A DNA stretch of 64,000 nt, taken from NCBI GenBank assembly GCA_964016885.1, contig OZ024740.1:98394001-98458000 (forward strand), given 5' to 3'. The notes below the pieces were generated by a model that was given only the letters and a program-made list of their open reading frames with translations, made no database searches and was not told the origin of the DNA. Within the stretch, counting starts at the first letter, position 1. The number at the start of each line of letters is the position of its first letter. Source of the stretch: Eledone cirrhosa. Its lineage: Eukaryota. The position numbers and the translations under genes are program-made. This document shows, in pieces, positions 7,277-41,529 of this stretch.

Positions 7277-7650
7277 TTAGAAAGTGAGGTTTTTTTTACA
7301 AAATGAAAAATAACCGAGGTGTCCTACACGAGTGAAAGTATAAAAAAAAAGAGATGAAATCGAAAATGCAACTGGAGTCTTATTTTTTTTTTTAAATATA
7401 TATATTTATTTGGTTCCTTTACCGGTTTCGTAGTTCTTCTGCTTTTCAAAAGGTGAGTTGAGATGGAGGGTCTGTGGTTTTTCTCACAGATGTGAGAAAA
7501 ACCACAGACCCTCAATCTCAACTCACCTTTATGAAAAGCAGAAGAACTACGAAACCGGGAAAGGAACCAAATAAATATATATATTTAAAAAAAAAATAAG
7601 ACTCCAGTTGCATTTTCGATTTCATCTCTTTTTCTTTATATATATATATA
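7277..7650. repeat. Fold-back palindrome (~150-bp arms, 7339-7650, centre ~7490) in TA-rich context; PLE pLTR-like
   Basis: gagatgaaatcgaaaatgcaactggagtc...tctcaca | tgtgaga...gactccagttgcattttcgatttcatctc; contains GAAACCGGTA/GAAACCGGGA, an HHR 3' half. Confidence 0.85.
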
Positions 7651-8186
7651 AACGGAAAAAATGAAACAAAATTTAATTTCCCACTCTTAGTACGGCTGTT
7701 ACTTAAATATAAGTATGTACACGTACATACATATATGTATACAGACGTACAGTAGTATGTATATATATATATATACATACATGCACACACATATATATGT
7801 ACGTATGGATTCACCGAACATTTATTATAATGCTCGGTGTGTTTGTAAACAAACATCCCGTATTAATAATAAATGTTCGGTTATATATATATATATATAT
7901 ATATATATATATATATATATATATATATATATATATATATATATATATATATATATATATATATATAGGAACAAGTAAGACCCCGACGGCTGAGCTCAAG
8001 CCGTTTTGACGGCTAATTCCATATATATATATATATATATATATATATATATATATATATATATATATATATATATATATATATATATATATATATATAT
8101 ATATATATATATATATATATATATATATATATATATATATATATATATATATATATATATATATATATATATATATATATATATAT

Positions 8187-8570
8187 GGAGGCACATGACT
8201 TAGTGGTTAGGGCATTGGGCTTGCAGTCGAAAGGTTGGGAGTTCAATTCTCAGACCGGGTGATGTGTTGTTTCCTTGAGCAAGACACTTTATTTCACATT
8301 CCTCTTGTTTACTCAGCTGTAGAAATGAGATGATAGGACTGGGGTCCCTATCATTCCACTGCAAAGTGATCGTGGAGGTGCCATGGCAAAAAAGCACCCA
8401 GCCAACACTATAAAGTGGACGTGTAGGTGCCACGGAAAAAAAAGCACCCTGCACTCACTGTAAATGAGGTTGGTGTTAGGAAGGGCATCCAGCTGTAGAA
8501 ATCAAGTTCCCGTCCCACCCTTGCAAGTAGGGAAAAGCGGACGTAACATGATGATGATGATGATGATGAT
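8187..8570 (+). mobile_element. tRNA-derived SINE, family B, with RTE-derived middle and 3' tail
   Basis: A box TGACTTAGTGG, B box GAGTTCAATTC, CORE-like ccttgagcaagacactt, ggaagggcatccag motif shared with the RTE 5' UTR at ~1560, tail acccttgcaag.agggaaaagcggacgtaa(gat)n matching the RTE 3' end at 21920-21975. Confidence 0.8.
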
Positions 8571-8635
8571 AATATATATATATATTTGTATATATATACT
8601 TAAGACACTATATACTGTGTGTATATATGTATATA

Positions 8636-8962
8636 CATAAGAAGAAATTAAAAGATGGTTAAGAAAGTTCCATGTATTTTATTATGCACATTTCAAAAGC
8701 AAATATCATCCTGGGACGATATTGTATACTCATCAGATAAAATAGGGAGACATGATATGAAGCTTAAAAAAACACTGTGATGAGAACGCAAATATCGTCC
8801 CAGGATATTTGTTTATGAAATGCGCATAATAAAATACATGGAACTTTCTTATCCATCTTTTAATTTCTTCTTATTTATACTCCAGTCCAATAAACTGTTG
8901 AGTGCTACTTATCCGATATTTGCATTGCTTTATTGTGCTACATTAAAACTCACCTCCTACAC
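8636..8962. mobile_element. Fold-back PLE pLTR derivative (same family as the ends at 9811 and 25962)
   Basis: 8636-8735 is the reverse complement of 8778-8875; the right arm has an ~85-nt extension ending at (TA)n. Confidence 0.85.
8675..8744 (-). ncRNA. Type I hammerhead ribozyme motif
   Basis: Minus strand: TATTTTAT-CTGATGA-stem II (AATATC/GATATT)-GAAA-TGTGCA-TA^ATAAAATA; 8-bp stem I, AUA cleavage triplet, base of stem II imperfect. Confidence 0.7.
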
Positions 8963-9850
8963 ATATATATACATATATATATATATATATATATATATAT
9001 ATATATATATATATATATATATATATATATATATATATATATGTAGGAAAAGAGTCAGGACCCCGATGGCTGAGCTCCCGCCATATCGACAGCTAGATCT
9101 GAACTAACCCCTATATATATATATAACTATATATACATATGTTAGATGATGATGATGATGATATATATATACATATATGAGTCCACAAATTACCGTCGAA
9201 ACGGCTTGAGTTCTGCCGTCGGGGTCTTGAACATTTTCCTATGTATATATATATATATTTAGATAAATACACACACACACACACATATATATATATATAT
9301 ATATATATACAAGTCCACTCCAAGATACCGCATGGATATATGCATAACACACACTAACTTTGATACTTTACACAATATACCTTTTAAAAAAATCACACCT
9401 TTAAACATATACATACACCAACACTTCATTTTGCATTCCAAATTCGTTACCAAGACTACCTAACGGTTCATCTTGTTGACCTTATTTATTTTCATTTGTT
9501 TTTACATTCATTGTACTACCTATTATTTTTGCATCTTCCTTTGTGATCCTGTCTCTAATTTTGTACTCCTTAAGAAGGGCTAAAGCACGACATGTCAAAC
9601 GTTTTTTCCCTCTTTTCTATATAAAGCGTGAAACTAATAAGACATTTTGTACCTCTGTTTGTTGGTTCCTTCAACTGCATATATACATATATATATAATC
9701 AGTTCCTGTATGAGCAAGGTCAGCCTACTGGACACTGCCTACAACAGGACAAACCTTCTAACCCGTGCTAGCGTGGAAGAACCGACGTAAAACGTTGATG
9801 ATTTTATATATATAAAGAAGAAATTAATAGATGGTTAAAAAAGTTCCATA

Positions 9851-9920
9851 TATTTTATTATGTGCATTTCGAAAATAACATCATCCTGGGACAGAAATTG
9901 TGTTCTCATCAGATAAAATA
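9851..9920 (-). ncRNA. Type I hammerhead ribozyme motif in PLE 3' pLTR
   Basis: Minus strand: TATTTTAT-CTGATGA-GAA...TTC-GAAA-TGCACA-TA^ATAAAATA. Confidence 0.7.
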
Positions 9921-40089: not shown

Positions 40090-40274
40090 GGGCGGTGGAT
40101 TGGCAGTATCGGTGGAGGGTCGGACGCCATGCTTTCCAGCATAGTTACGTCCCTTTACGATCTGAGTTCAAATCCTGCCGAGGTTGACTTTGCCTTTCAT
40201 CCTTACGGGGTCGATAAAATAAAGTACCAGTAATGTACTGGGTAATTGCTGGCCTTGTGCCAAAAGTAGAAACA
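40090..40274 (+). mobile_element. SINE family A (first of a tandem pair)
   Basis: Full length; 20-bp TSD attattattaaaggacttga at 40070 and 40275. Confidence 0.95.
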
Positions 40275-40294
40275 ATTATTATTAAAGGACTTGA

Positions 40295-40479
40295 GGGCGG
40301 TGGATTGGCAGTATCGGTAGAGGGTCGGACGCCATGCTTTCCAGCATAGTTACGTCCCTTTACGATCTGAGTTCAAATCCCGCCGAGGTTGATTTTGCCT
40401 CTCATCCCTACGGGGTCGATGGAATAAAGTACCAGTAATGCACTGGGTATGTGCTGGCCTTGTGCCTAACGTAGAAACA
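40295..40479 (+). mobile_element. SINE family A (second of a tandem pair)
   Basis: Full length; same TSD at 40275 and 40480. Confidence 0.95.
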
Positions 40480-40545
40480 ATTATTATTAAAGGACTTGAA
40501 CATCTGAAACTACTTCGCTTTTCCTTATTCTATATATATATATAT

Positions 40546-40787
40546 TTCGTTTCTGAATTTGTTTAGCAAGATTCTTTATCTGAAAACGTGTGATGAAACC
40601 GATATTGTTATACTTTGGTCATGTTGCCAATAAGAAACACATGCACCAGTTGCTTTCACTACAGTTTATTATAAATTAAATTCATAAATTCTTAAATTTA
40701 TAAATTGAATTTATAATAAATTGGAGTGAAAGCAACTGGTGCATGTGTTTCTTATTGGCAACATGACCCTCCCAAAGTATAACAATA
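40546..40787. mobile_element. Miniature fold-back related to the 3' terminus of the 31677-35961 PLE
   Basis: Arms ~40602-40690 and ~40695-40787; atgaccctccca(a)agtataacaatat and the tail cggtttcatcacacgttttcagataaag resemble 35895-35950. Confidence 0.8.
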
Positions 40788-40989
40788 TATATATATATAT
40801 ATGTTTACTTACATAACTATATACATACATATATAAAGGTATATTCGTGAAGGTTCAATGAAGAGCCACTCTTCTCCCAGAATGATATGCTAAATTATTA
40901 GAATATCTAAACTAATCTGTACGGCAAAACTGCGTATATAACTAGCCATCCATCTCTCTCTCTCTCTGTATGTATATATATATATATAT

Positions 40990-41529
40990 ATGACAAGTGA
41001 ATATGTTTTGAAACAGTGAGCAGGTTTGAAATTAGAAAATAGAATAGCTTTCACCGTATTTTTGACTAAAGAAATTTTAGTCTGATAATGGGGCTTAGAA
41101 CCCTCAGATAAATGGAAAAAGATGAGTATTGACGTACATGGGAGTCAAACCCACATCTTTTGTTATCCAGACCACTGTGCTACCATTACACCAACACATC
41201 ACCCATCTCCTTCCATTCAAATTAGAAGCTACATTCTTAGCGTGTATAAATGACAAGTAAGTATGTTTTGAAATAGTGAGCAGGTTTGAAAACATACTTA
41301 CTTGTCATTTATACTCGCTGAGAATGTAGCTTCTAATTTGAATGGAAGGAGATGGGTGATGTGTTGAATGGAAGGAGATGGTGTAATGGTAGCACAGTGG
41401 TCTGGATAACCAAAGATGTGGGTTCGACTCCCATGTACGTCAATACTCATCTTACTCCATTTATCTGAGGGTTCTAAACCCCATTATCAGACTAAAATGC
41501 CTTTAGTCAAAAATACGGTGAAAGCTATT
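40990..41529. mobile_element. Fold-back element of a 260-bp monomer with an internal tRNA-like cassette
   Basis: 42-bp direct repeat at 40990 and 41250; inverted arms 41043-41269 and 41289-41529; TA tracts on both flanks. Confidence 0.88.
41130..41200 (-). pseudogene. tRNA-like cloverleaf (GGA at the anticodon position, short variable arm); mirror copy at 41358-41442, interrupted by a short duplication
   Basis: GATGTGT-TG-GTGT AATGGTA GCAC-A-GTGGT CTGGATA AC(C/A)AA-AGAT-GTGGG TT(C/T)GACT CCCAT-GTACGTC-A; A and B boxes present. Confidence 0.65.

Follow-up and report, generated by a model that had tools for sequence, protein, structure and literature searches.

How do insertions that consist of two inverted copies of the same 3' region, one of them always the longer, come to stand in (TA)n microsatellites? 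This question is raised by a stretch of 64,000 nucleotides (nt) from the genome of Eledone cirrhosa (contig OZ024740.1, positions 98,394,001 to 98,458,000; below, the window). All of the DNA evidence presented here comes from this window, an AT-rich piece of animal DNA in which 86 TA tracts reach 8 nt or more and ten such insertions had been reported; the insertions are labelled E1-E10 in their order along it. These are insertions made by endonuclease-bearing Penelope-like elements (EN+ PLEs), non-coding passengers included, and they probably arose from two target-primed complementary DNAs (cDNAs), one from each strand of a cut (TA)n tract, that were joined head to head by 2-3 nt of microhomology. 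Published work describes for EN+ PLEs an inverted 5'-truncated copy, a tail of 30-40 base pairs (bp) at one end and a bias for (TA)n, and it counts the way in which their tandems and inversions arise among the open questions (PMC8557442). Head-to-head palindromes of PLEs have been described, with self-priming preferred as their source (PMC3846280), and opposite-strand pairs of hammerhead ribozymes 100-700 bp apart have been reported, as has a hammerhead core of the U3-A8 kind (PMC4209133). Recently active Penelope-like families have been reported in Octopus vulgaris (PMC13282606).

Ten tailed palindromes in TA tracts

Inverted arm pairs were present in all ten elements, and the claim of an earlier sequence-only reading that their arms run outward into TA tracts was borne out: 18 of the 20 outer ends have an uninterrupted TA run of 8 nt or more within 4 nt, the remaining two having 6 nt, against a background of 0.56% of window positions (0.83% in the 7-42 kb region). 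One arm was said to be about 30-170 nt longer than the other, and the overhangs measured, with microhomology counted in, are 65, 90, 110, 34, 47, 45, 171, 77, 60, and 52 nt from E1 to E10, a range of 34-171 nt. The coordinates given earlier agree with ours within a few bases, except that E4 starts at 14253, 18 nt away from the 14271 claimed for it. Because the original ten were picked as TA-flanked cases, inverted pairs were also read from the self-BLAST list of the window, those of short interspersed nuclear elements (SINEs) and simple repeats being excluded. Ten of these 13 pairs are E1-E10, and the other three (27797-28297, 29234-29837, and 48522-49090) have no TA tracts at their ends. The first of the three lies in an 89% palindrome (27785-28321) with arms of about 250 nt and an A-rich centre, without TA flanks, which is another kind of element; the other two are older inverted pairs, likewise lacking TA flanks. 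A mini palindrome at 7799-7881 (7813-7881), which adjoins a long TA tract and has about 13 extra nt on its left, may be an eleventh case.

The two arms diverge from each other by 0.4-17.9% in nine of the elements, E7 alone having identical arms (0 of 189 positions), and they differ by indels in nine of the ten. In E8, a SINE pair with its duplicated 20-nt site is confined to one arm. As had been argued from the substitutions, such differences together with the one-arm SINEs indicate that the palindromes are genomic and exclude a fold-back sequencing artefact for most elements; the case is weakest for E7 and then for E6, the next youngest. The elements E6-E9 (31681-40784) abut on each other through common TA tracts with no unique DNA in between, and their arm divergences of 0.4, 0.0, 3.7, and 4.7%, respectively, make the left two young and the right two older. 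All seven differences between the arms of E6 fall within the outer 791 of 1501 nt (35127-35725 versus 32470-31873; p 0.011), and two of the seven are G/C changes in the same ATA-AC context. No target duplication other than TA was seen at the elements; a look-alike of 14-16 nt at E5 (17205-17222 and 17432-17447), noticed by eye, is ambiguous.

Insertions of the same family, of which the window has two to four copies per family, reuse the same ends. The end tataaagaagaaatt, which had been reported from both 8636 and 9811, is exact at 9811, whereas the copy at 8636 reads cataagaagaaatt, with one mismatch. The motif cacctcctaca was found as reported, at 8951-8961 and reversed at 25962, and the end reported as common to 31677 and 40787 is agtataacaatat, a short end present at 31677 and 40776-40788; this sequence stands at 40776 and 35909, and its reversed form at 31677 and 40602. 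The single-arm copy at 9811 carries a short end and that at 25962 a long end. No inverted partner was found for the 9811 copy, for which 13100-13217 was checked for a long-end arm (local scores 16-24), nor for the 25962 copy in the self-BLAST of the window. E6 and E9 have a common short end, but their long ends lie 15 nt apart (tails of 45 versus 60 nt), so that the fixed, family-specific ends proposed earlier hold only within close families.

The 5'-truncated open reading frame (ORF) of E6 (33177-35375) contains a DKS motif, a reverse transcriptase (RT) with YVDD, a CX4CxxC linker, and a GIY-YIG-type endonuclease (VVYSIRC...YIGET). The best match of its long part at 33345-35375, among the matches listed, is an Octopus vulgaris protein with 68% identity; PF01541 is annotated on at least two of the 351 homologues, and none of the 120 listed is a reference sequence bearing a clade label; in the comparison with Pfam, RVT_1 was matched with an E value of 1e-4, below Pfam's cut-off. 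The linker reads CTNRKCIIC and its cysteines are invariant in all nine aligned sequences; a CX2-5CxxC linker upstream of GIY-YIG is a trait of Neptune that is common to Nematis and Naiad (PMC8557442). Judged by the motif criteria of that study, E6 is classed as an EN+ PLE of the Neptune/Nematis type, and it has the structure of this group, with 5' truncation, an inverted copy, and a one-sided tail. The N-terminal helix, which bears much of the predicted dimer of the Anolis PLE, is truncated in the E6 ORF. Eight of the ten window ORFs examined gave no Pfam match, and a search of solved structures returned no PLE structure, its two weak matches being phage-defence RTs (E 0.04 and 0.13).

The orientation of most other elements comes from hammerhead motifs. 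A relaxed descriptor, set with the sequences in view, was matched by nine of 23 arms read outward, by none of the 23 read inward, and by 1 of 920 shuffled arms. It orients E1, E2, E3, E4, E6, and E7 and also the single copies at 9811 and 17759. Both arms of E6, which is oriented by its ORF as well, pass the descriptor with a stem II of 6 bp and a stem I of only 2 bp. E8 is oriented by a motif seen on inspection, E9 by its homology to the end of E6, and E10 by its head resembling a transfer RNA (tRNA). The earlier statement that 3' ends point outward therefore stands for E1-E4, E6, and E7 by the descriptor, but it is not shown for E5, where no hammerhead passed the relaxed descriptor. As the arms run through the hammerhead cleavage site, their templates were uncut there. 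When six of the motifs were folded as RNA, only the right arm of E8 surpassed its shuffled versions (z -2.67); the other five, including both tRNA-like heads, did not.

Among the non-coding copies, the connection to PLEs consists of a hammerhead in E1, E2, E3, E4, and E7, of homology to E6 in E9, and of a motif recognized by eye in E8; neither was found in E5 and E10. Candidate autonomous partners can be linked within the window for E9, with E6, and possibly for E2, with a remnant at 10769-12861 that may be the upstream part of the copy ending at 9811. E7 has one trait of a non-LTR retrozyme, namely 4.35 near-identical non-coding tandem units with a type I hammerhead, which was scanned in unit 1 (stem I 5 bp, stem II 6 bp). 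One variant alternates as A, T, A, T, A across five 591-nt units of this array (36034-38606), a two-unit periodicity for which rolling copying of a dimer, a block duplication, and an assembly effect are candidates. In E10, which is a single insertion in the window and in which no hammerhead was found, heads with A and B boxes sit about 90 nt inside each arm, and it is possibly a tRNA-headed, SINE-like passenger of PLEs. This tRNA pair alone passes the Rfam gathering score, hairpins matching microRNA (miRNA) families below it.

Junctions at the outer ends and at the centres

The continuation of the template beyond an end is known where the tailed arm or the next tandem unit reads past it, and at such junctions the first six positions of the tract were compared with it. 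In a count by hand over 12 junctions, which leaves out the short end of E9 (where the E6 motif is repeated) and the 9811 end (where a 1-nt gap is needed), the template equals the TA pattern at 50 of 72 positions. A null that allows for template matches shifting the apparent start of the tract gives 26.4 +/- 4.5 (22.2 if uncorrected), and none of 500000 draws reached 50. The nine short ends taken alone have 38 matches in 54 positions against 19.9 expected (4 of 500000 draws). Every assessable end has a UA-like patch in the template. The sequence-only reading had placed an ATAT/TATA microhomology at one end only; the short ends are indeed TA-like, but so are the three long ends with known template continuation, where 3, 4, and 5 of the six bases are TA-like. 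Additionally, at 5 of the 13 scored junctions a template base inside the patch has been replaced by the tract base. In E4 and E7 the replaced base is a G opposite T, a combination that forms a wobble pair when a DNA primer lies on RNA, and base replacement within patches is the trace that would be expected of an annealed (TA)n primer.

The centres bear on the relation between the two arms. Snap-back of a single cDNA requires that the tail-less arm be a sub-copy of the tailed arm, and E2, E4, and probably E3 are otherwise, which argues against self-priming. The 42-nt spacer of E2 aligns with the copies at 9811 and 25962 and continues the tail-less, short-end arm. Neither arm of E4, be it the tailed one or the tail-less partial tandem, lies within the other. 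In E3, where the evidence comes down to a few bases, the CTG in the hammerhead core of the tail-less arm is probably provided by the 4-nt spacer. Five of the seven assessable centre junctions (E2 TG, E3 AT, E4 GG, E7 AA, and E10 AAA) have a microhomology of at least 2 nt, for which the null is 0.175 each (p 0.0025), and in E6 it is at least 1 nt. A TA tract is absent from nine of the ten centres. In five of the ten elements the two arms stop within 11 nt of each other (permutation of arm lengths, approximate p 0.00043), and these near-equal stops indicate that the arms are coupled.

Two observations concern individual centres. The centre of E8 (39380-39706) could be assigned to neither arm, there being no coding match among 120 homologues and its composition being ambiguous; on the minus strand it is T-rich and ends in a polypyrimidine-AG stretch, by eye possibly a retained intron. 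The inner truncations at 8778 and 13507 coincide with the hammerhead core (TGATGA), away from the cleavage site, and possibly reflect pausing of the RT at this structure.

Origin of the inverted arms

The model that fits these junctions best is the one already suggested by the sequence-only reading, that is, two primings joined head to head. E2, E4, and probably E3, as well as the single-arm ends at 9811 and 25962, accord with it, whereas the defined long end it assumed is not fixed across E6 and E9. A GIY-YIG endonuclease, known to act in this manner in PLEs, would here cut both strands of a (TA)n tract. As such a tract is self-complementary, both free 3' ends would read ...TATA, and each would anneal over 3-6 bases to a UA-like patch of the uncut RNA, the step to which the end junctions speak. 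One patch would lie 42-228 nt downstream of the hammerhead site and the other 34-171 nt beyond it, the gap being the tail. A separate cDNA, usually 5'-truncated, would then be primed by each end, and these same-sense cDNAs would become joined 3' end to 3' end by a microhomology of 2-3 nt, as the centre junctions suggest and in an order that we infer; each would template the second strand of the other, giving a head-to-head palindrome with one arm longer. In the weakest step of this scheme, both cDNAs would be made from one RNA, and the RT running behind would displace the cDNA made ahead of it and change over to that cDNA. A single RNA with strand displacement is proposed because about half of the cDNA pairs stop within 11 nt, and long spacers would reflect one RT stalling early. 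The pure TA that follows G-containing patches and the four insertions chained via shared tracts favour targets in which the TA existed beforehand.

These steps have a counterpart in PAc, the Poseidon of Anolis carolinensis, which in vitro cuts and extends both target strands, starts reverse transcription at two internal sites downstream of the hammerhead that match the genomic tail, and uses uncut RNA as its main substrate; a dimer is predicted (PMC11167929). Similarly, in our elements two start sites would define the tail, the hammerhead lies upstream, and the template is uncut. The portion of that study covered contains no account of how inverted copies form. A more specific form of the two-priming model, which we put forward tentatively, is overlapping double priming: with a dimeric RT, base pairing would set the position at which each of the two microsatellite ends starts on a common RNA, the RT behind would displace the cDNA ahead and jump to its 3' end so that the two cDNAs would template each other, and the same process would carry the tandems of E7 and the tRNA-headed E10. 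If this were true, the palindrome would be the ordinary way in which the second strand is made, and the tail would be the spacing of the two primers.

Self-priming, in which a single cDNA started at the long end would fold back at its 3' end, serve as its own template, and be joined to the far flank at a TA-like patch, was preferred for PLE palindromes of Adineta vaga (PMC3846280), and it would suit the centres of 0-11 nt in E1, E3, E5, E9, and E10, the 7-bp stem with one mismatch that is possible in E10, the short arms lying within long arms in E6, E7, and E10, and the microhomology at the short ends, which it predicts. It cannot, however, yield E2 or E4, in each of which both arms have sequence that the other lacks, nor E3 if the spacer is the hammerhead core of the tail-less arm, and the short end at 9811 occurs without a partner. 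As the explanation of the whole set it appears unlikely to us, and it may account for a subset of the elements. We give a low probability to the proposal that a symmetric intermediate forms first and is then resolved asymmetrically by the endonuclease, so that the tail reflects cutting and not two priming sites. This was named the most likely source of the tail (PMC8557442), and the preference of the enzyme for AT-rich DNA could mimic microhomology (PMC11167929), but the RT start sites determined later in vitro map onto the tail boundaries (PMC11167929), the spread of the tails, 34-171 nt, is very wide for a staggered cut, and the replaced bases within patches would suit an annealed primer.

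The TA tracts could alternatively be products of insertion, written by the RT in a telomerase-like stutter on UA patches or grown later from a terminal TATA. The RTs of PLEs are sister to telomerase (PMC8557442), and the UA-like patch at every assessable end would be in keeping with this. However, patches such as AUGUAU in E4 and E7 lead into pure TA and not into G-bearing repeats, the left two members of the E6-E9 chain are younger than the right two, an age pattern expected if the tract was there before it was hit, other PLEs are reported to target (TA)n and (C)n (PMC8557442, PMC9977147), and most of the 86 tracts in the window have no such element; we consider this account very improbable. 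Least credible is that the structures are miniature inverted-repeat transposable elements (MITEs) or other fold-back DNA transposons at TA, chance adjacent insertions, or assembly fold-backs. Long inverted repeats at TA dinucleotides, several miRNA-like hairpins in Rfam (all below the gathering score), and the identical arms of E7 are what such readings can invoke. They are countered by the asymmetric ends, the variable inner truncation, the outward hammerheads, the presence of the PLE ORF in both arms of E6, and the centres without TA tract. A MITE or fold-back transposon was rejected since it requires symmetric terminal inverted repeats reaching both ends, while a one-sided tail is present in 10 of 10 elements; sequencing or assembly artefact and chance adjacency were likewise rejected, in view of the arm substitutions and the SINEs in one arm only.

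A number of points weigh against the double priming that we prefer. The mechanism is inferred from ten insertions. In E6, E7, and E10, where the short arm lies within the long one, double priming and snap-back fit equally, and in E1, E5, E8, and E9 ownership of the centre by either arm is undecidable between the models. The centre of E8 has no microhomology, that of E3 was deduced from stem pairing, and the value for E6 is uncertain. The permutation of arm lengths pools unrelated families, which makes its p value approximate; the matches at the outer ends were read by hand from the junction alignments, and the end microhomology also fits a DNA-level joining of the second end. With regard to the hammerheads, none of the 146 matches (E up to 5) in the Rfam scan is to a hammerhead family, a strict descriptor had one match with a score of at least 8, as did two of ten shuffles, and the relaxed descriptor was set after the sequences had been inspected, its controls being the inward strand and shuffled arms. 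The clustering of arm differences in the outer half of E6 is explained by none of the models. The start site of PAc is reported to lack homology to the DNA that is cut and not to differ between the strands (PMC11167929), in contrast to the TA-like template seen here. Lastly, in a literature search of mostly open papers, none assigns one start site to each inverted arm.

Neighbouring features and relation to known elements

The features of the window are collected in Table 1. The three copies of the short family share a TTCC end, and their opposite ends differ. A decayed PLE-type endonuclease remnant at 42095-42324 (-) resembles the one at 18063-18335. A long interspersed nuclear element (LINE) RT remnant with RVT_1 and PHD-like matches (24573-25930, -) stands directly across a TA tract from the 25962 copy, and a Tx1/L1-type element was recognized by eye near the end of the window (59678-62226, +), two of its ORFs being tested without a Pfam match. 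The two tandem SINE copies at 40070-40499 show a 20-nt target duplication three times, and the SINE family of E8 also occurs at 705, 12900, 16953, 17449, 28611, and 30725.

Table 1. Elements and related features in the window (arm strands in brackets)
Feature	Position	Strand	Description
E1	7278-7636		left arm (-) 7278-7488, 65-nt tail; right arm (+) 7491-7636; centre of 2 nt; TA tracts 7260-7277, 7637-7650; minimal hammerhead with U3-A8 core, cut after 7420
Short-family copy 1	7968-8020	-	53-nt single arm between TA tracts; TTCC end as at 9043, 9243
E2	8636/8640-8961		short-end arm (-) 8636-8779 including 42-nt spacer; long-end arm (+) 8778-8961, 90-nt tail; hammerhead cut after 8683
Short-family copy 2	9043-9111	-	TA both sides
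Short-family copy 3	9179-9243	+	TA both sides
E2-family single arm	9811-9953	-	ends at short end; hammerhead cut after 9859
PLE-like RT/endonuclease remnant	10769-12861	-	frameshifted; upstream of 9811 end; by eye and weak tblastn, no Pfam match
E3	13246-13659		long-end arm (-) 13246-13505, 110-nt tail; short-end arm (+) from or just before hammerhead core 13507; cut after 13617
E4	14253-14889		short-end arm (-) 14253-14665, partial tandem, inner unit without 30 nt; long-end arm (+) 14666-14889, 34-nt tail; hammerhead cut after 14724
E5	17223-17441		oldest pair (15/84 substitutions); 47-nt tail on right; TA run at centre; no hammerhead by descriptor
Single 5'-truncated PLE copy	17759-18335	-	endonuclease C-terminus 18335-18063; hammerhead cut after 17861; TA both sides
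E2-family single arm	25962-26192	-	ends at long end
E6	31681-35962		short-end arm (-) 31681-33180; long-end arm (+) 33181-35962, 45-nt tail; hammerhead cuts after 31905, 35693; arms differ by 6 substitutions and 1 indel in 1500
PLE ORF, 5'-truncated	33177-35375	+	in E6; one in-frame stop before 33345; long ORF 33345-35375
E7	36040-38796		4.35 tandem 591-nt units (-) 36040-38606, joined at AA to 192-nt inverted arm ending 171 nt further 3'; hammerhead type I, U3-A8, cut after 36114 in unit 1
E8	38890-40530		long-end arm (-) 38890-39379, 77-nt tail; 327-nt centre; short-end arm (+) 39707-40530
SINE copies in E8	40090-40499		two, interrupting short-end arm
E9	40546-40784		E6 3'-end relative; long-end arm (-), 60-nt tail; 4-nt centre; short-end arm (+)
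E10	40992-41528		long-end arm (-) 40992-41291 = 260-nt unit + 40 nt terminal redundancy, 52-nt tail; short-end arm (+) 41289-41528
tRNA-Ser-like head, E10 left arm	41129-41201	-	Pol III A box 41182, relaxed B box 41151
tRNA-like head, E10 right arm	41377-41442	+	A box 41390, B box 41421
TA tract joining E6/E7	35963-36039
TA tract joining E7/E8	38794-38889
TA tract joining E8/E9	40531-40545

In L1 twin priming, cDNA is primed by two strands of the target, and an inversion results when the products are joined at a short microhomology. The joined parts there stem from separate segments of a single RNA, and poly(A) and a target duplication are present, whereas in our elements both arms repeat the same 3' region, poly(A) is lacking, and a duplication would be unreadable in TA. 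The elements do not fit L1-type twin priming, for which non-overlapping segments and poly(A) are expected, both arms having the same 3' region in 10 of 10 elements.

The elements resemble the EN+ PLEs (Penelope/Poseidon, Neptune, Nematis, Naiad) in the head-to-head truncated copy, partial tandems, one-sided tail, (TA)n bias, CX2-5CxxC linker, and minimal hammerheads, and the U3-A8 core of PMC4209133 recurs in E1 and E7. Unlike the published tail of 30-40 bp, nine of the ten tails here exceed 40 nt, microhomology included, and reach up to 171 nt. The explanations published for PLEs are self-priming or endonuclease resolution, whereas double priming is favoured here. Like the retrozymes, E7 is a non-coding tandem whose unit bears a type I hammerhead. 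The units of animal non-LTR (long terminal repeat) retrozymes, however, measure 170-400 nt (PMC7229834, bioRxiv 10.64898/2026.07.22.740005), in contrast to 591 nt in E7, where the array stands in one insertion with an inverted arm, a tail, and TA flanks; its location inside a single tailed insertion suggests that the tandem was inserted as such. Retrozyme-like elements have been argued to derive from PLEs (bioRxiv 10.64898/2026.07.22.740005). The SINE-like repeats of schistosomes combine a promoter with a hammerhead (summarised in PMC6765202). E10 is like them in that its unit is short and terminally redundant and has a tRNA-like Pol III head, and it differs from them in its lack of a detected hammerhead and in its PLE tail and inversion geometry.

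The geometry described here is thus the already described footprint of PLEs, and the two-priming model was largely anticipated by the 2024 in vitro work (PMC11167929). The literature search noted above, outside of which two older PLE reviews lay, found no target-template pairing at PLE start sites; it likewise found no tRNA-headed PLE passenger with this geometry and no description of the non-containment of arms or of their near-equal stops. What these ten insertions add is the longer and variable tail, the target pairing at the ends, the evidence against pure self-priming, and the coupling of the arms. Short PLE palindromes of this kind are open to mis-annotation as MITEs or miRNA hairpins. 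If the junction rules hold genome-wide, double priming would be favoured over self-priming, and target-template pairing at initiation would be shown for these elements, unlike what has been reported for the Anolis enzyme.

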